Of a stretch of DNA of 64,000 nucleotides, positions 8,345 to 63,104 are shown one piece after another. Origin of the DNA: Escherichia coli (GTDB taxonomy: Bacteria > Pseudomonadota > Gammaproteobacteria > Enterobacterales > Enterobacteriaceae). The position numbers and the translations under genes are program-made. The notes under the pieces are model-generated. The model searched no databases, had not been told where the DNA came from, and worked only from the letters and a program-made list of their open reading frames with translations. The stretch lies in the NCBI RefSeq assembly GCF_044324875.1, contig NZ_CP172185.1, one strand, 5' to 3'. How positions within the stretch are numbered: position 1 is the first letter of the stretch; each line of letters starts with the position of its first letter.

Positions 8345-9285
8345 TCCACGGTTCAGGCCTGTGGGCATGATAAGACGCGTCAGCGTCGCATCAGGCATCT
8401 GCGCACGGTGTCGGATGCGGCGCGAGCGCCTTATCTGACCTACGGTTCAGACCTGTAGGCATGATAAGAGGCACCAGCGTCGCATCAGGCATCTGCGCAC
8501 GGTGTCGGATGCGGCGCGAGCGCCTTATCCGACCTACGGTTCAGGCCTGTAGGCATGATAAGACGCGCCAGCGTCGTATCAGGCATCTGCGCACGGTGTC
8601 GGATGCGGCGCGAGCGCCTTATCCGACCTACGGTTCAGGCCTGTAGGCATGATAAGACGCACCAGCGTCGCATCAGGCATCTGCGCACGGTGTCGGATGC
8701 GGCGCGAGCGCCTTATCCGACCTACGGTTCAGACCTGTAGGCATGATAAGACGCGCCAGCGTCGCATCAGGCATCTGCGCATGGTGTCGGATGCGGCGCG
8801 AGCGCCTTATCCGACCTACGGTTCAGGCCTGTAGGCATGATAAGACGCACCAGCGTCGCATCAGGCATCGGCGCACGGTGTCGGATGCGGCGCGAGCGCC
8901 TTATCCGACCTACGGTTCAGGCCTGTAGGCATGATAAGACGCGCCAGCGTCGTATCAGGCATCTGCGCACGGTGTCGGATGCGGCGCGAGCGCCTTATCC
9001 GACCTACGGTTCAGACCTGTAGGCATGATAAGACGCGCCAGCGTCGCATCAGGCATCGGCGCACGGTGTCGGATGCGGCGCGAGCGCCTTATCCGACCTA
9101 CGGTTCAGGCCTGTAGGCATGATAAGACGCGTCAGCGTCGCATCAGGCATCGGCGCACGGTGTCGGATGCGGCGCGAGCGCCTTATCCGACCTACGGTTC
9201 AGGCCTGTAGGCATGATAAGACGCGTCAGCGTCGCATCAGGCATCGGCGCACGGTGTCGGATGCGCCACACGACGCATCCGACAA
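8345..9285. repeat. Tandem BIME array, about 10 copies of a 94-bp unit, each with two inverted REP palindromes
   Basis: Unit atgataagacgc(g/a)(c/t)cagcgtcgcatcaggcat...tgtcggatgcggcgcgagcgccttatccgacctacggttcag(g/a)cctgtaggc recurs every 94 bp from about 8367 to 9213. Confidence 0.88.
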
Positions 9286-12700: not shown

Positions 12701-13870
12701 TTACTGGCGCTTATCCAGCGCGACAAACTGGCGGTCTTCCGGTCCAACATAATTGGCGGAAGGACGGATAATTTTGTTGTCCTGACGTTGTTCGATAATG
12801 TGCGCCGCCCAGCCGGTGACGCGGGCGATAACAAACAGTGGGGTGAACATCTCGGTGGGAACGCCCATCATGTTGTAGGAAACAGCGGAGAACCAGTCGA
12901 GATTGGGGAACATCTTTTTGCTCTCCCACATCACCGTTTCCAGGCGATCGGCGATGTTGTACATCTTCAGCGAACCGCCTTCCTGCGAGAGCTGCTTCGC
13001 CACGCGTTTGATCACCTGATGACGCGGGTCGGCGATGGTGTAAACCGGATGACCAAAACCAATGACCACTTCTCTGTTTTCCACGCGCTTGCGGATATCG
13101 GCTTCGGCTTCGTCCGGCGTTTCGTAGCGTTGTTGGATCTCCAGCGACACTTCATTCGCCCCGCCGTGTTTCGGCCCGCGCAGTGCGCCAATCGCGCCAA
13201 TAATCGCGGAATACATATCAGAGCCGGTGCCCGCAATCACCCGGCTGGTAAAGGTGGAGGCGTTAAACTCGTGTTCGGCGTACAGCACCAGCGAAATATG
13301 CATCGCCTTTTCCCAGCTTTGCGACGGCTTTTCGCCATGCAGCAGATGCAGGAAGTGACCGCCGATGGAGTCGTCATCGGTTTCTGGCTGGATGCGTTCG
13401 CCGTTGTGGCTGTAGTGATACCAGTAGAGAAGAATCGAGCTAAGCGACGCCAACAGTTTGTCGGCAATATCCCGCGCGCCAGAGACAGTGTGCCCTTCTT
13501 TTTCTGGCAGCGTGCAACCGAGTGCGGAAACGCCTGTGCGCATGACATCCATCGGGTGCGACGCCGCCGGTAAGGCTTCCAGCACGGTACGCACGTTAGC
13601 CGGTAAACCGCGCAGGGCTTTCAGTTTTGTTTTGTAAGCGGCGAGTTCGTCACGGGTCGGCAGTTTGCCGTGGATCAGCAGATGCGCCACTTCTTCAAAT
13701 TCGCAATGTTCCGCCAGATCAATAATATCGTAACCACGGTAATGCAAGTCATTGCCACTTTTACCCACGGTGCAGAGCGCCGTATTGCCCGCCGGAACGC
13801 CAGAAAGTGCCACAGATTTTTTCGGTTTAATGACATGGGTACTGTTTTGCAGGATCGTTGTGTCGCTCAT
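12701..13870 (-). CDS. prpC: 2-methylcitrate synthase, 389 aa
   Basis: Citrate synthase family protein recognised as PrpC. Confidence 0.95.
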
Positions 13871-13910
13871 ATTGTCCTCGTCATTGTTATCATTTGTAGG
13901 GTCGAGATTG

Positions 13911-14376
13911 TTGTCGGATGCGACGCTATGCGTCTTATCCGACCTACAGTTCAGTTCACCCCGCAGGCCTGATAAGCCGCGTCAGCGTCGCATCAGGCAT
14001 CGGTTGTCGGATGCGACGCCATGCGTCTTATCCGACCTACAGTTCAGTTCACCCCGTAGGCCTGATAAGTCGCGTCAGCGGCGCATCAGGCATCGGTTGT
14101 CGGATGCGACGCCATACGTCTTATCCGACCTACAGTTCAGCACGCCCCGTAGGCCTGATAAGCCGCGTCAGCGGCGCATCAGGCATCGGTTGTCGGATGC
14201 GACGCTATGCGTCTTATCCGACCTACAGTTCAGTTCACCCCGTAGGCCTGATAAGCCGCGTCAGCGGCGCATCAGGCATCGGTTGTCGGATGCGACGCTA
14301 TGCGTCTTATCCGACCTACAGTTCAGTTCATCCCGTAGGCCTGATAAGCCGCGTCAGCGGCGCATCAGGCATCGGT
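13911..14376. repeat. Tandem BIME array, about 5 copies of a 93-bp unit, in prpB-prpC spacer
   Basis: ttgtcggatgcgacgc(t/c)atgcgtcttatccgacctacagttcag...ggcctgataagccgcgtcagcg(t/g)cgcatcaggcatcgg repeated. Confidence 0.85.
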
Positions 14377-14402
14377 TGTCGAATACAACCAACGGGCGTT
14401 TT

Positions 14403-15293
14403 TTATTTCGCCTGGCTACGGGCAAACAGGTCGTCGAGCTTCTCTTCGTACTGGTAATAGTTGATGCTTTCGTACAGTTCGTTGCGGGTCTGCATGGTGT
14501 CGATGACGCTTTTCTGCGTGCCTTCCTGACGCAGGACGTTGTAGACATGTTCGGCGGCGCGGTTCATGGCGCGAAACGCTGAAAGCGGGTACAGCGCCAT
14601 TGCAACATGGGCACTGCGTAATTCATCGGTAGTAAACAGCGGTGTTGCGCCAAATTCGGTAATGTTGGCGAGGATTGGCACCTGCACCGCATCGGCAAAC
14701 TGGCGGTACATAGCGAGTTCGGTAATCGCCTCCGGGAACAACATCTCGGCACCCGCTTCAACATAGGCCCGCGCACGCTCGATCGCCGCATCCAGCCCTT
14801 CAACCGCCAGCGCATCGGTGCGCGCCATGATCACAAAATCAGGATCGGTTTTCGCATCCACCGCCGCGCGGATCCGATCCACCATCTCCTCTTTCGAGAC
14901 GATCGCTTTATTCGGGCGATGGCCGCAGCGTTTCGCACCAACCTGATCTTCAATATGCAATCCCGCCGCACCGGCTTTAATCATCGATTTCACGGTGCGC
15001 GCAACGTTAAAAGCAGAAGAACCAAAACCGATATCCGCATCTACCAGCAGCGGCAGCGAGCAGACGTCGGTGATACGGCGAATGTCGGTCAGCACGTCAT
15101 CAAGGGTAGAAATACCGAGATCGGGCAGCCCCAGCGAACCTGCCGCCACGCCACCGCCGGAAAGATAAATCGCCTGATATCCGGCACGCTGCGCCAACAG
15201 CGCATGGTTAGCGTTGATGGTGCCAACAATCTGCAATGGATTTTCTTTAGTCAGTGCAGCGCGAAACGCTTTACCTGGAGAGTGTAGAGACAT
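14403..15293 (-). CDS. prpB: 2-methylisocitrate lyase, 296 aa
   Basis: Protein recognised as PrpB ([34 protein letters not shown]...). Confidence 0.95.
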
Positions 15294-15339
15294 AGCCCAT
15301 CCTTTGTTATCAACTTGTTATTTGCGTTAATAAAGACAA

Positions 15340-15355
15340 AGCAAGGGGTGTGCCA
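15340..15355 (-). promoter_or_regulatory. sigma-54 promoter of prpBCDE (minus strand TGGCAC-N5-TTGCT)
   Basis: Plus strand agcaaggggtgtgcca; reverse complement gives GG at -24 and GC at -12 with correct spacing, about 47 bp upstream of prpB ATG; prpBCDE is known to be sigma-54/PrpR dependent. Confidence 0.6.
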
Positions 15356-15531
15356 CAATTGCCTGAATAAAATTAAATGTTTTATTTCAATTTGTTAGAG
15401 ATAAAGTCATGAAGTAATCCGCAAATATGCGTTTCAGTTAACGTTTCAGGCAATGTTTCACCGCGTTTCATTGCAACAATTATGAAACAAGACTAAACCC
15501 AATATTCAGTTTCTTAACTTTGCGGTGCGCT

Positions 15532-17118
15532 ATGGCACATCCACCACGGCTGAATGACGACAAACCGGTTATCTGGACGGTATCGGTGACGCGCCTGTTC
15601 GAGCTGTTTCGCGATATCAGCCTCGAGTTTGATCATCTGGCGAACATTACCCCTATCCAGCTTGGCTTTGAAAAAGCGGTGACCTACATCCGCAAGAAAC
15701 TGGCAAGCGAACGCTGTGACGCCATCATCGCTGCTGGCTCTAACGGCGCATATCTTAAAAGCCGCCTGTCAGTGCCAGTTATTTTGATTAAACCGAGCGG
15801 CTACGATGTGTTGCAGGCACTGGCAAAAGCCGGAAAACTCACCTCTTCTATCGGCGTTGTCACTTATCAGGAAACCATTCCAGCGCTGGTGGCGTTTCAA
15901 AAAACCTTTAATTTGCGCCTCGACCAACGTAGCTACATTACAGAGGAAGACGCACGCGGGCAGATTAACGAGCTGAAAGCTAACGGCACCGAAGCGGTGG
16001 TCGGCGCAGGGCTGATTACCGATTTGGCAGAAGAAGCCGGAATGACCGGAATTTTTATCTATTCCGCCGCCACCGTGCGCCAGGCATTCAGCGATGCGCT
16101 GGATATGACGCGCATGTCGTTACGCCATAACACTCACGATGCCACCCGTAACGCCCTGCGTACTCGTTACGTGCTGGGCGATATGCTCGGTCAATCACCA
16201 CAGATGGAACAGGTACGGCAGACTATTTTGCTGTATGCCCGCTCCAGTGCAGCGGTGTTGATTGAAGGGGAAACGGGGACGGGCAAAGAGCTGGCGGCCC
16301 AGGCGATTCATCGGGAATATTTTGCCCGCCACGATGCGCGACAGGGCAAAAAGTCACATCCGTTTGTTGCCGTCAACTGCGGGGCGATTGCCGAATCGCT
16401 GCTGGAGGCAGAGCTGTTTGGCTATGAGGAAGGGGCGTTTACCGGCTCGCGACGCGGAGGTCGCGCCGGGCTGTTCGAAATCGCCCACGGTGGTACGCTG
16501 TTTCTGGATGAGATTGGCGAAATGCCGCTACCTTTGCAGACTCGCCTGTTACGGGTGCTGGAAGAAAAAGAGGTCACCCGCGTCGGCGGGCATCAGCCTG
16601 TTCCGGTGGATGTGCGAGTCATTAGCGCCACTCACTGCAATCTGGAAGAAGATATGCGGCAAGGGCAGTTTCGCCGTGATCTGTTTTATCGGCTGAGTAT
16701 TTTGCGTCTGCAATTGCCACCACTGCGCGAGCGGGTGACGGATATTCTGCCGCTGGCGGAAAGCTTTTTGAAAGTGTCTCTGGCGGCGCTCTCCGCCCCG
16801 TTTTCTGCCGCATTACGCCAGGGATTACAGGCAAGCGAAACCGTGCTGGTGCACTACGACTGGCCGGGCAATATTCGTGAACTGCGCAATATGATGGAGC
16901 GACTGGCGCTGTTTTTAAGTGTGGAACCGACGCCGGATTTAACGCCGCAATTTTTGCAGCTGCTACTGCCGGAACTGGCGCGCGAGTCGGCGAAAATTCC
17001 CGCCCCATCCTTGCTGACACCACTACAGGCACTGGAGAAATTTAATGGCGATAAAACAGCAGCGGCGAATTATTTAGGCATCAGCCGGACGACGTTCTGG
17101 CGGCGGCTGAAAAGCTGA
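15532..17118 (+). CDS. prpR: sigma-54 dependent activator of prp operon, 528 aa (start [12 protein letters not shown])
   Basis: AAA+ sigma-54 activator motifs ([13 protein letters not shown]) and C-terminal HTH; divergent from prpB. Confidence 0.93.
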
Positions 17119-23517: not shown

Positions 23518-24468
23518 TTACGTTTTAATAATATGTGTGCCTGTTTCACCGCGCAGCGCCGCAGGCAGGCATTCCGGCGTGGTGATAATCACTTCTTTGC
23601 CGCCCTGCTCCAGGAACGTCAGGCTGGCGATGATTTTTGGCAACATGCTGCCAGGCGGGAAATGCCCTTCCTGCATATAGCGGGTCATGGTGGCAATATC
23701 CACCCGATCCAGCGCCTGCTGCTGCGGCTTGCCAAAGTGAATACACACTTTTTCGACGCCGGTGGTGATCACCAGAATGTCGGCGTGAATTTCACGGGCC
23801 AATAGCGCGGTAGAGAGATCTTTGTCGATAACCGCGTCCACGCTTTGGTAATCCCCCGCTTCACTGCACACCACCGGAATTCCACCGCCGCCCGCGCCAA
23901 TCACCACAAAACCTTGTTGGATCAGCGCCTTAATGGCAGGTGCTTCGACAATACGTTTCGGTTCCGGCGAGGCGACCACGCGGCGATAGCCCCGTCCGGC
24001 ATCTTCAACAAAACGCCAGTCAGGGTTTGCCTTTTGTAATTCGTCACGCTGGCTTTCACTGAAGAATGCGCCGATGGGCTTGGTGGGATGAGCAAATCCC
24101 GGATCGTTTTTATCCACTTCCACCTGAGTCACCACGGTGACGGCTTTTTTCTCGCCGTGACGCGCCAGTCGGTTATTCAGCGCCTGTTGGATCAGGTAGC
24201 CGATGCCACCTTGCGTATCCGCCACACAGTTCGCCAGCGGCGTTAAGGGCAGCCCTTCGCGCTCGTGGGCAATCTCCGCACGGCGTAAATCCAGCCCGAC
24301 CTGCGGCCCGTTGCCGTGGGTCAGCACAATGTCGTAATCGGAAGCCAGCATTTCCAGCACCGTATCGGCGACGGCCTTCACCGCCTCCGCCTGATGCTCA
24401 ATCGACTGGCTGGCGTTATCTTTGATAATGCTGTTGCCACCAATGGCAACGACCACAAGTTCTTTCAT
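23518..24468 (-). CDS. yahI: carbamate kinase-like protein, 316 aa
   Basis: Amino-acid kinase fold (VVAIGGN..., THGNGPQVG) recognised as YahI. Confidence 0.9.
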   Translation of the reverse strand: MKELVVVAIGGNSIIKDNASQSIEHQAEAVKAVADTVLEMLASDYDIVLTHGNGPQVGLDLRRAEIAHEREGLPLTPLANCVADTQGGIGYLIQQALNNRLARHGEKKAVTVVTQVEVDKNDPGFAHPTKPIGAFFSESQRDELQKANPDWRFVEDAGRGYRRVVASPEPKRIVEAPAIKALIQQGFVVIGAGGGGIPVVCSEAGDYQSVDAVIDKDLSTALLAREIHADILVITTGVEKVCIHFGKPQQQALDRVDIATMTRYMQEGHFPPGSMLPKIIASLTFLEQGGKEVIITTPECLPAALRGETGTHIIKT

Positions 24469-24518
24469 GTTGTTATGTCCGCTACAGAGGGTGATGGGGT
24501 TATGACCAACGCCAGACT

Positions 24519-24700
24519 GCCTGATGCGCTACGCTTATCAGGCCTAGAATTCTCGTGCCATTCGTAGGCCGGATAAGGCGTTCACGCCGCATCCGGCAAT
24601 GGTGACAAATGCCTGATGCGCTACGCTTATCAGGCCTACAGATTCTCGCGCCACTCGTAGGCCGGATAAGGCGTTCACGCCGCATCCGGCAGAGACAACG
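24519..24700. repeat. BIME with four REP palindromes between yahG and yahI
   Basis: Two copies of gcctgatgcgctacgcttatcaggcctac...gtaggccggataaggcgttcacgccgcatccggca. Confidence 0.8.
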
Positions 24701-24713
24701 CGCACTTTGCAGG

Positions 24714-26132
24714 TCAGACGCCGTAACGTTCGCACCAGCCAAGAATGGCTTTCTCGAAGCAGGCGAATGGTGGATGCACAATGCCCGCGCCAATCATGCC
24801 GACGCCCGCATCTTTATGGGCGATGGCGGTGTTGATCACCGGCAGAATGCCGCTACTGCCCACGCGGGTTATGTCGATTGCCGACGGCACGCCCATAAAA
24901 CCGAGCAGCGGAATGGTGACGTTGGGATTTTCGCCGAGAGTGATTTCGCGCATCTGGCGGGAGAAATCGATGGCCTCTTCCACCGTACCGCCCACCAGCG
25001 CGACGATTGCAGGCGCGGTCGCCATAGCAAATCCACCAATGCCGTAGGTTTCGGTGATGGCGCTGTCGCCAATATCCAACCCAGAATCTTCCGGCTTATA
25101 ACCGGCAAACATCGGGCCGATGACCTGCTGCGCCGGACCGGTAAACCATTGCCCCGGTAATCCGCTGACCCGCAGGCCGAACTCGACGCCGTTACGCGCC
25201 ATGGTGGTCACCACAGTGCTGTATTCGATGCCGTGCGCCGCATCCATCGCCGCTTTACACATCGCCATCCACGTCGGGCCGGAGAAGTAGTCACTGCTGG
25301 CGACAAACTCAAACACTTCGCGCTGTTGCTCGACGGAGTAGCCCGCCTGAATAATCCCCGGCGTCAGCGCCTGAATCAGCAGCGTCGTCCCGGCGTTATT
25401 GCGGTTATGGCACTCATCGCCCATATGCAGCGCCTGCGCCAGCATTAAGCGCAGATCGATCTCGCCGATAATTTTCATCGCATCGCGCAGCATTGGCCCC
25501 TGCACATCACGCATCCAGTTGAGTCGGTCGATCACGCTCTGGTCGTTAGCGCCCATACGCAAAATCTTTGCCATCTGCTCGCTCATATTGGTGTAAGCGA
25601 TGTTGCCGTAGGTTTTGTTTTTCACGATGTGCATAAACATCGAGGCCGAGGTAACACCCGCCATCGATCCCACGCAGTCATGTTCGTGGCACGGCGAGAA
25701 GGTGATCTCCCCGGAGGCCGCCAGTTCAGCCGCCTCATCGAGATCTTTCGCCAGCCCTTCGAACACCAGCGCTCCGGTGACCGCGCCTTTCATCGCGCCA
25801 CACATTTTTTCCCAGGTGATCGGCGGTCCGGCGTGAAGAATGGTTTTCGGCGTCATACCCGGCACCACGTTAATCGCCTGATCAAAACCAATCAGCACCG
25901 GATGCGACTGGATAATGCGCTCCAAAGCCTGCTGGTTAGCGGCGGCGATTTTGTCTGCCAGCGGCGAATCGGCAATGTTATCCAGCGCCTGCACCACCTG
26001 CATATTGCCCTGCCCCGGCGGCGTCCAGTCGAGTTGAGTCACTTCTACATGCTGCTTTTTCAGGTCATCGCTAAACATGGCGATGCCGACGTTAATAACG
26101 TTCAACGGTTGGCTAAACAGTGACTGGCTCAT
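24714..26132 (-). CDS. yahG: DUF1116 protein, 472 aa (YlbE paralog)
   Basis: Recognised as YahG. Confidence 0.88.
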   Translation of the reverse strand: MSQSLFSQPLNVINVGIAMFSDDLKKQHVEVTQLDWTPPGQGNMQVVQALDNIADSPLADKIAAANQQALERIIQSHPVLIGFDQAINVVPGMTPKTILHAGPPITWEKMCGAMKGAVTGALVFEGLAKDLDEAAELAASGEITFSPCHEHDCVGSMAGVTSASMFMHIVKNKTYGNIAYTNMSEQMAKILRMGANDQSVIDRLNWMRDVQGPMLRDAMKIIGEIDLRLMLAQALHMGDECHNRNNAGTTLLIQALTPGIIQAGYSVEQQREVFEFVASSDYFSGPTWMAMCKAAMDAAHGIEYSTVVTTMARNGVEFGLRVSGLPGQWFTGPAQQVIGPMFAGYKPEDSGLDIGDSAITETYGIGGFAMATAPAIVALVGGTVEEAIDFSRQMREITLGENPNVTIPLLGFMGVPSAIDITRVGSSGILPVINTAIAHKDAGVGMIGAGIVHPPFACFEKAILGWCERYGV

Positions 26133-62923: not shown

Positions 62924-62957
62924 GCCCCGCCAGCTATAATCGCGGGGCTTCGTTTTT
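62924..62957 (+). terminator. rho-independent terminator after ykgJ (gccccgc / gcggggc, then TTCGTTTTT)
   Basis: 7-bp GC stem plus T-run. Confidence 0.6.
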
Positions 62958-63104
62958 CAGGGATAACAAAACCCGAAACTTCTTCCATCTGCCAGCAACA
63001 ATGCCTCTTCCTCTATAGTGTTCTCCGGATCTACAGCATCCTGAAGTAGCGCGATGTACTCATTGGCTATCTGCATCAGAAAGTTAAAAACAATGTTTTT
63101 AACC

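Follow-up and report, generated by a model that had tools for sequence, protein, structure and literature searches.

Within the window, by which is meant the whole 64-kb stretch of Escherichia coli DNA that was analysed, the genes prpB for 2-methylisocitrate lyase (14403–15293) and prpC for 2-methylcitrate synthase (12701–13870) are both located on the minus strand, and in the transcript prpB lies upstream and prpC downstream of a spacer of 532 bp (13871–14402). The spacer is mostly occupied by a tandem array of REP sequences, which is wholly extragenic and confined to it. The assignment of prpB is based on the NCBIfam models NF008455 (560 bits) and TIGR02317 (456 bits) and on an identical RefSeq record in which the gene is named prpB, and that of prpC on the model NF009006 (720 bits). 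NCBIfam equivalog models likewise pick out prpD, prpE and the divergent prpR, each with a score well over the respective cut-off.

Tandem Repeats Finder reports for the array a period of 93 bp with 5.1 copies, 96% matches, no indels and a score of 874 at 13910–14381, and in a repeat search of the window the copies were found to be in register and spaced exactly 93 bp. An earlier note on this DNA had placed about five copies of a 93-bp unit in the prpB-prpC spacer at 13911–14376, which is correct with respect to number and, to within a few bases, to position. The note had also called the array the second one inside the prpBCDE operon. It does lie inside the operon, but it is the sole intra-operon array; the other large array (8348–9265) is found past prpE, between prpE and codB. 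Besides the prpB-prpC array there are two further Y/Z arrays within the same window, and 5–8 places per genome resemble the array in BLAST searches.

Repeat units and their classification

Read in the sense of the transcript, the unit consists of a Z2 REP (TGCCTGATGCGCCGCTGACGCGGCTTATCAGGCCTAC, 37 nt), a linker (GGGGTGAACTGAACT, 15 nt), a Y REP (GTAGGTCGGATAAGACGCATAGCGTCGCATCCGACA, 36 nt) and the 5-nt linker ACCGA. Within a unit Z2 and Y are arranged head-to-head, and neighbouring units are joined tail-to-tail. All units are given here on the minus strand. Unit 1 (14279–14371) has its Z2 REP at 14335–14371, its head linker at 14320–14334, its Y REP at 14284–14319 and its tail linker at 14279–14283. 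The same four elements are located in unit 2 (14186–14278) at 14242–14278, 14227–14241, 14191–14226 and 14186–14190, in unit 3 (14093–14185) at 14149–14185, 14134–14148 (with the variant head linker GGGGCGTGCTGAACT), 14098–14133 and 14093–14097, and in unit 4 (14000–14092) at 14056–14092, 14041–14055, 14005–14040 and 14000–14004. Unit 5 (13907–13999) has Z2 at 13963–13999, the head linker at 13948–13962, Y at 13912–13947 and a junction at 13907–13911.

The array is bordered on the prpB side by a left flank of 31 nt directly after the prpB stop codon (14372–14402, minus strand), which holds the sequence GTTGTATTCGACAACCGA. By its sequence this looks like the decayed 3' half of a Y REP followed by the tail linker; it folds as a weak hairpin only (−7.9 kcal/mol, z = −1.5) and aligns with the complete Y REP found past the stop codon of prpB in Salmonella and Citrobacter. 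On the other side is a right flank of 41 nt (13871–13911, minus strand) with the Shine-Dalgarno sequence of prpC, GAGGA, at 13875–13879. The right flank is conserved across E. coli alleles and other genera.

BIME-2 elements are composed of z2 and y REPs that are separated by short linkers and repeated several times in tandem, the copy number varying between strains (Ton-Hoang 2012, PMC3333891). These features are found in the prp array, in which Y and Z2 alternate in inverted orientation, the linkers are short (15 and 5 nt), the tandem copies are 96% identical and their number is strain-variable. The published lengths are 35 nt for y, 29 nt for z1 and 37 nt for z2 REPs (Corneloup 2021); in the prp array Y has 36 and Z2 has 37 nt, and both are imperfect palindromes that form stem-loops. 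The tetranucleotide GTAG, which is conserved at the head of the REP palindrome (PMC8266576), is present as GTAG/CTAC in nine of the ten REPs, the exception being the Z2 REP of unit 5 with a mutated head (CTGC instead of CTAC, i.e., GCAG for GTAG). All ten contain the AA/GC bulge (GATAAG...CGCATC), whose AA and GC are unpaired in the Rfam structure line.

When compared with the consensus sequences of Nunvar 2010 (Table 1; PMC2817692), the Z2 REPs, read on the strand opposite to the transcript, agree at 27 of the 27 conserved positions in units 1–4 and at 26 in unit 5. The Y REPs share the consensus core GTAGG, GATAAG and CGCATC and depart from the consensus in a conserved G, which is replaced by A with a compensating change in the opposite arm (a T-A pair for C-G), as well as in one additional loop base and further loop substitutions. 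Taken together, the Y and Z2 REPs with their GTAG heads, the AA/GC bulge, the alternating orientation, the extragenic location and the variable copy number support the designation as a tandem BIME array that the earlier note had proposed. The layout supports the assignment to the BIME-2 type; the linker motifs named for this type are S between the REPs and s, l or r on the flanks, and a chimeric combination of these would instead make the array an "atypical BIME". An "atypical" array of Y and Z1 is ruled out by the published lengths of z1 (29 nt) and z2 (37 nt), and a CRISPR-like or other spacer-containing array by the fact that the units abut without unique spacers.

The four Y-Z2 junctions were also recognised, in independent support of the classification, by the Rfam model naRNA4 (RF02564), the gathering score of which is 59.5 bits. 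On the minus strand, which is that of the transcript, all four junctions reach it with 61.8–67.4 bits: 67.4 bits at 14245–14316 (covering Y of unit 1 and Z2 of unit 2), 67.4 bits at 14152–14223, 63.5 bits at 14059–14130 and 61.8 bits at 13966–14037. The matches on the plus strand (49–58 bits) are under the gathering score. Over the three arrays of the window the model gives 14 matches; in effect it works essentially as a detector of any Y-Z2 pair.

An array at the same place is present in E. coli K-12 W3110 and MG1655, with four units in a spacer of 439 bp. In MG1655 it is catalogued as REP25 (349606–349970, prpB/prpC, "Tandem") in the supplement of Harris et al. 2026 (bioRxiv 10.64898/2026.03.23.713779), and the end coordinate given there is where the last Y REP stops in our unit map of the K-12 spacer. 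The prp array is the orthologue of this already catalogued element. The two have the locus, the flanks and the 93-bp Z2/Y unit in common, and the spacer together with the flanking prpB and prpC segments is approximately 95.5% identical. They differ in that K-12 has 4 units and 8 REPs in 439 bp versus 5 units and 10 REPs in 532 bp here, in a few single-base changes, mainly in loops and linkers, and in the mutated head (GCAG) of the last Z2 REP of the array in the window. The repeats in prp and the difference in their number between strain ZvL2 and K-12 have already been published (Pobeguts et al. 2020, PMC7360682). The element is therefore already known, and a function proposed for it at this locus is already in print. 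In the accessible literature no prior account was found of the distribution of 0–5 units over thousands of genomes or of the RefSeq mis-annotation discussed below, nor of the mildly new observation that E. albertii, Citrobacter and Salmonella have REPs in the orthologous spacer.

The array is mobile-element-derived repeat DNA of a family that is linked to the REP transposase (TnpA-REP/RAYT). The rayT gene of K-12 is located at about 247.6 kb, roughly 100 kb away from prp, a distance greater than a 64-kb window spans.

Alleles in E. coli and in related genera

The locus was matched in 5,220 of 5,426 complete E. coli genomes, and at least one unit was found in 3,135 of these. A comparison of copy number among strains, which the earlier note had recommended, was made on 60 of 5,222 E. 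coli records, sampled systematically in even steps down the match ranking. In 23 of the 60 (about 38%) there is no unit and no REP at all, prpB and prpC being kept with a spacer of only 44 bp. One unit is found in 16 records (27%; spacer 155–159 bp), two in a single record (2%; 253 bp), three in five (8%; 346 bp), four in 12, many of them K-12 derivatives (20%; 439 bp), and five, as in the window, in two (3%; 532 bp); in one record the operon is partly deleted. None of the 60 sampled records has more than five units.

The alleles that were fetched have constant flanks and differ by in-register steps of 93 bp. Strain LAU-OXA, for example, has a 2-unit allele with PrpB and PrpC identical to the K-12 proteins, and its first unit combines unit 1 of K-12 with unit 2 or 3. 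A hybrid of this kind would be expected from unequal recombination or slippage between units, one of which is thus the likely source of the length changes. Indeed, variation in copy number from strain to strain is general in BIME-2 (PMC3333891; Chiapello 2005, PMC1187871).

The empty 44-nt allele also lacks the 9-nt segment ATAACAATG, which the filled E. coli alleles and the majority of the related genera examined have, as such or as a close variant. By parsimony, the empty allele is more likely to be a secondary loss than the ancestral state.

The spacer was followed beyond E. coli in species with PrpB, each represented by one genome. The same Z2/Y array is found in E. albertii, where the spacer measures 405 nt, and a single unit is found in another Escherichia species. 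Spacers with one or two REPs of a genus-specific type were found in Salmonella enterica subsp. arizonae and diarizonae (93–111 nt) and in many Citrobacter species (80–125 nt); in both genera no more than about 10 nt separate the prpB stop codon from the first REP. In Kluyvera the spacer contains a remnant only. In the single genomes per species of Pseudocitrobacter, Shimwellia, Photorhabdus, Xenorhabdus, Providencia and betaproteobacteria the spacers are short and no REPs were recognisable. The Y-TT-Z pair of Salmonella and Citrobacter aligns with the left edge of the E. coli array, which reads Y relic-ACCGA-Z2. A REP pair after prpB is probably old and was probably amplified in Escherichia.

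Folding and presumed transcription of the spacer

The minimum free energy of the spacer RNA is −266 kcal/mol as compared to −186 ± 6 kcal/mol for shuffled sequences (z = −12.9). A whole unit folds at about −49 kcal/mol, and the single hairpins at −23.5 kcal/mol (Z2; z = −5.9) and −19.2 kcal/mol (Y; z = −6.3), with none of 200 shuffles folding as well. The right flank together with the first prpC codons has a folding energy of −2.3 kcal/mol (z = +0.9), so that the region in which prpC translation is initiated is unstructured and, as far as the folding model goes, is free of sequestration by the REP hairpins. Covariation was analysed with 14 distinct units from six alleles. There is little variation among them, and the one pair that changes on both sides (C-G to U-A) is indistinguishable from what is seen in shuffles.

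A scan of positions 13500–15600 for sigma-70 promoters and intrinsic terminators found neither. The array therefore does not form a transcription unit of its own, nor is it a Rho-independent terminator. Upstream of prpB, in the divergent region between prpR and prpB, there is a sigma-54-type promoter-like element, TGGCACACCCCTTGCT (15340–15355, minus strand), with one mismatch to TGGCAC-N5-TTGCA. It is presumed to be the source of the transcript that crosses the array; this is argued from its position because matches to the pattern are not enriched window-wide. The prp operon has been described as polycistronic (PMC7360682).

Possible functions of the array

Our analysis favours, with a probability of roughly 0.6, that the array, as a co-transcribed BIME-2 orthologous to REP25, raises the expression of prpB over that of prpCDE by a combination of exonuclease block and partial termination. 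The array would be transcribed within the sigma-54/PrpR-driven prpBCDE mRNA, and its RNA would fold into ten stable hairpins. These hairpins would stall 3'-to-5' exonucleases, and prpB-containing decay intermediates would outlive the prpCDE part, RNase R being the candidate enzyme able to clear the hairpin-protected prpB intermediates. The hairpins may also bring about partial, Rho-assisted termination ahead of prpC; in our estimate such termination is as likely to contribute as is the effect on stability. The net result would be an expression of prpB above that of prpCDE, probably graded by the number of units. Since the ribosome-binding site of prpC is unstructured, prpC translation would start independently. 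This does not mean that the array is essential for the operon. Because many E. coli genomes keep an intact operon without it, the array is to be considered a dispensable modulator, whose effect on the balance between prpB and prpCDE expression is probably one of fine-tuning and not of switching.

The differential stability of prpB and prpCDE transcripts that the earlier note had suggested is what textbooks ascribe to REPs within operons. REPs have reportedly been described as mRNA stabilisers by Newbury and co-workers in 1987, e.g., between malE and malF, and BIMEs are said to have been characterised as transcription attenuators by Espeli, Moulin and Boccard in 2001. With these classical elements the prp array has in common that REP hairpins are located between genes of one operon and that the upstream gene is expressed above the downstream gene. 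It should be noted, however, that the classical cases involve two or few REPs rather than ten and that for prp the effect is one that we infer. A further mechanism, ribosome stalling and tmRNA action at a stop-proximal REP, was reportedly described by Liang, Rudd and Deutscher in 2015. For E. coli prp it is not expected, the first strong hairpin beginning 31 nt past the end of prpB. In Citrobacter and Salmonella, in which a REP follows within about 10 nt of the stop, such a mechanism might operate.

More can be learned from REP325 (naRNA1–6), located between yjdM and yjdN. Northern blots of the yjdMN operon have revealed a dual action of REP325, namely stabilisation of the transcript upstream and attenuation of that downstream, in part in a bicyclomycin-sensitive manner, and genome-wide the tandem gene pairs with a REP in between have raised upstream/downstream ratios with a wide scatter (bioRxiv 10.64898/2026.03.23.713779). 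REP325 resembles the prp array in that it is an intra-operon tandem array of alternating Y and Z2 REPs between co-directional genes, and the prp units pass the naRNA4 model. It differs in having 12 hairpins versus ten, a Y-Z2 tail linker with 6 additional nt (which leave a gap in the Rfam alignment) and the canonical GCCGGAT in its Y REPs, which read GTCGGAT...ATCCGAC in the prp array. The function of REP325 was shown by experiment, whereas that of the prp array is inferred.

For the prp operon itself it has been reported that induction of prpB exceeds that of the downstream prp genes (Pobeguts et al. 2020, PMC7360682). In the same paper RNase R is mentioned, with reference to Simonte 2017, as proposed to target the prp repeats (PMC7360682). 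According to the summaries of Simonte 2017 given in PMC10240344 and PMC5371410, RNase R degrades the prpBCDE transcript, and its loss permits K-12 to use propionate under anoxic conditions.

The array could instead be a neutral or selfish passenger, i.e., REP DNA that persists and changes its length by recombination or through TnpA-REP and has no selected or measurable effect on prp. We consider this unlikely, but of all alternatives it is the one to be taken most seriously. In its favour, the number of units ranges from 0 to 5 with the flanking genes intact, more than a third of the sampled genomes (about 38%) having no array, and close relatives differ, as do K-12 with four and LAU-OXA with two units at identical PrpB and PrpC. 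Polymorphism in length is, moreover, family-wide in BIME-2 (PMC3333891, PMC1187871), and the effects of REPs are variable and depend on context, some REPs showing no stabilisation in reporters (bioRxiv 10.64898/2026.03.23.713779). However, ten hairpins of −19 to −24 kcal/mol in an mRNA are unlikely to be inert, and the reported excess of prpB induction over that of the downstream genes does not fit a passenger. That REPs are found in the same spacer of E. albertii, Citrobacter and Salmonella suggests long-term tolerance or benefit.

A role at the level of the DNA would be that of a strong, transcription-independent site for gyrase binding and cleavage, with the management of supercoiling around prp as the main task of the array. 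Some of the BIME-2 elements are enriched in gyrase cleavage sites; cleavage is mainly at y-type REPs and increases when transcription is blocked (PMC6379681). The prp array offers five Y REPs, and thus the type preferred for cleavage, but these are of the variant GTCGGAT...ATCCGAC, cleavage is restricted to a subset of BIME-2, and the prpB-prpC array is not named in the text or in the accessible supplements of the gyrase Topo-seq paper (PMC6379681). Considering also that the array is missing from many strains, we regard gyrase binding as an improbable main role. It would be compatible with the role in RNA and does not exclude it.

The four Y-Z2 pairs that score over the gathering score of naRNA4 on the transcribed strand bring to mind the model in which naRNA4 acts together with HU in chromosome condensation (PMC4550694), and the array could be a source of such nucleoid-associated RNAs. 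This is very improbable since the Rfam model picks up essentially any Y-Z2 pair, since prp is induced only by propionate and the RNA would rarely be made, and since REP325/naRNA4 itself was recently found to have no measurable effect on nucleoid compaction, with REP-REP contacts undetected (2026, bioRxiv 10.64898/2026.03.23.713779).

The long phantom ORFs that had been noticed on the plus strand do exist and are built from repeat frames. Because 93 is 3 × 31, plus-strand frames stay open from unit to unit: over the 472-nt array two of the three plus-strand frames are free of stops, and all three frames in transcript sense are closed. One ORF of 179 amino acids (13918–14457, plus strand) starts with ATG and consists of five 31-residue repeats, antisense to the operon; another of 276 amino acids (13752–14582, plus strand) runs from the antisense of the prpC interior through the array into the antisense of prpB. 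The former is annotated as "hypothetical protein" WP_001526095.1 in the RefSeq record NZ_CP018957 of strain Ecol_316, whose sequence is 100% identical to that of the window over 1.5 kb. In Pfam no family was convincingly over the cut-off for either ORF; SepSecS scored exactly at it (21.1 bits), with no matched stretch passing alone. Despite its ATG and its annotation, it is hardly conceivable that the 179-residue ORF is a real gene: it is the translation of five REP units, kept open only by a unit length (93) divisible by 3, it would grow and shrink with the number of units and does not exist in alleles with 0 or 1 units, it is antisense to the operon, has neither a predicted promoter nor a convincing Pfam family, and is not annotated in K-12 and nine other RefSeq strains fetched, including the 5-unit strain KE47. 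In MG1655 the locus tags skip from b0331 (prpB) to b0333 (prpC), which would fit the withdrawal of an ORF, presumably yahH, once called in the spacer. The "hypothetical protein" in RefSeq can thus be flagged as an annotation artefact, namely translated REP DNA.

The finding of the array as such matters little, since it is the rediscovery of the catalogued REP25. What it provides is a set of natural alleles, with 0 to 5 units in otherwise near-identical operons, which could be used to quantify how the number of REPs tunes the upstream/downstream expression ratio. Going further, one can speculate, although this is unlikely, that the number of units is a heritable and rapidly mutable rheostat for the ratio of PrpB to PrpCDE and, via the sensitivity to RNase R, for the use of propionate in the anoxic gut. 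If this were true, REPs would have persisted between prpB and prpC in Escherichia, Citrobacter and Salmonella owing to selection and would not merely have been tolerated.

REP sequences and repeats elsewhere in the window

The tandem Y/Z2 array between prpE and codB (window 8348-9265) is far larger than the one between prpB and prpC. It consists of 9.8 copies of a 94-bp unit, which are 96% identical, and contains nine matches, all on the minus strand, to naRNA4 (Rfam RF02564), a model that in effect detects Y-Z2 REP pairs. In K-12 the orthologous element, REP26, comprises only 171 bp, and the approximately 20 REPs present here are more than the range of 1-12 palindromic units given for REP elements of K-12.

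The third BIME of the window, 1.9 copies of a 93-bp unit at 24518-24691, is flanked by a gene for carbamate kinase (23518-24468, minus strand) and an ORF (24714-26132, minus strand). Its naRNA4 match is on the plus strand, antisense to both flanking genes, and has the highest naRNA4 score of the whole window (78 bits); its Z REP is of the short type (about 30 nt). The window also carries a full-length match to Rfam IS009 (RF02111) at 62944-63144 on the minus strand (192.9 bits versus a gathering score of 117) and, at 48002-48124, an imperfect 23/47-nt tandem repeat with the consensus ATGCCAAACCGTGATCGATTCG (4.3 copies, 73-81% matches).

The "hypothetical protein" WP_001526095.1 in RefSeq, from a strain with 100% identity to the window over 1.5 kb (NZ_CP018957.1, 2503228-2503767), corresponds to the REP-derived ORF at window 13918-14457 (plus strand). 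It is an annotation artefact, because it is composed of five 31-amino-acid repeats of translated REP DNA.

Transcription signals around prp

The divergent region between prpR and prpB contains a sigma-54-type element, TGGCACACCCCTTGCT (window 15340-15355, minus strand), which precedes the start codon of prpB by 47-62 nt. With respect to Rho, Harris et al. (2026) include in their supplementary data a NusG-dependent rut (Rho utilisation) peak at MG1655 349966-350088 on the minus strand, which is antisense to the 5' region of prpC and touches the edge of REP25, the K-12 orthologue of the prpB-prpC array. The orthologous segment here is at about window 13795-13917 on the plus strand. Among the rut peaks of that data set that the analysis covered, there is none on the sense strand at REP25.

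Variation of the prpB-prpC spacer

Some E. coli strains have an empty spacer of 44 bp (L004, L012), which also lacks the 9-nt segment ATAACAATG that precedes the prpC ribosome-binding site. Since ATAACAATG is present in the filled E. coli alleles, and itself or as a close variant in most of the related genera examined, sequence comparison suggests that the empty allele is the derived state. In one sampled strain, SCU-171, a deletion extending from within prpB to within codB has removed the array together with prpCDE, and both remnants are annotated as pseudogenes. In the window the prpC-proximal Z2 REP carries GCAG in place of the head GTAG (13963-13966, plus strand), a substitution shared by strain KE47; the GTAG head has been reported to be essential for recognition by TnpA-REP.

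REPs are found in the orthologous spacer of E. albertii, Citrobacter spp. and Salmonella enterica subsp. arizonae and diarizonae (L014, L018-L033). Whereas in E. coli 31 nt separate the prpB stop codon from the first strong hairpin, in Citrobacter and Salmonella the REP starts about 10 nt or less past the stop codon, where it could affect the translation of prpB.
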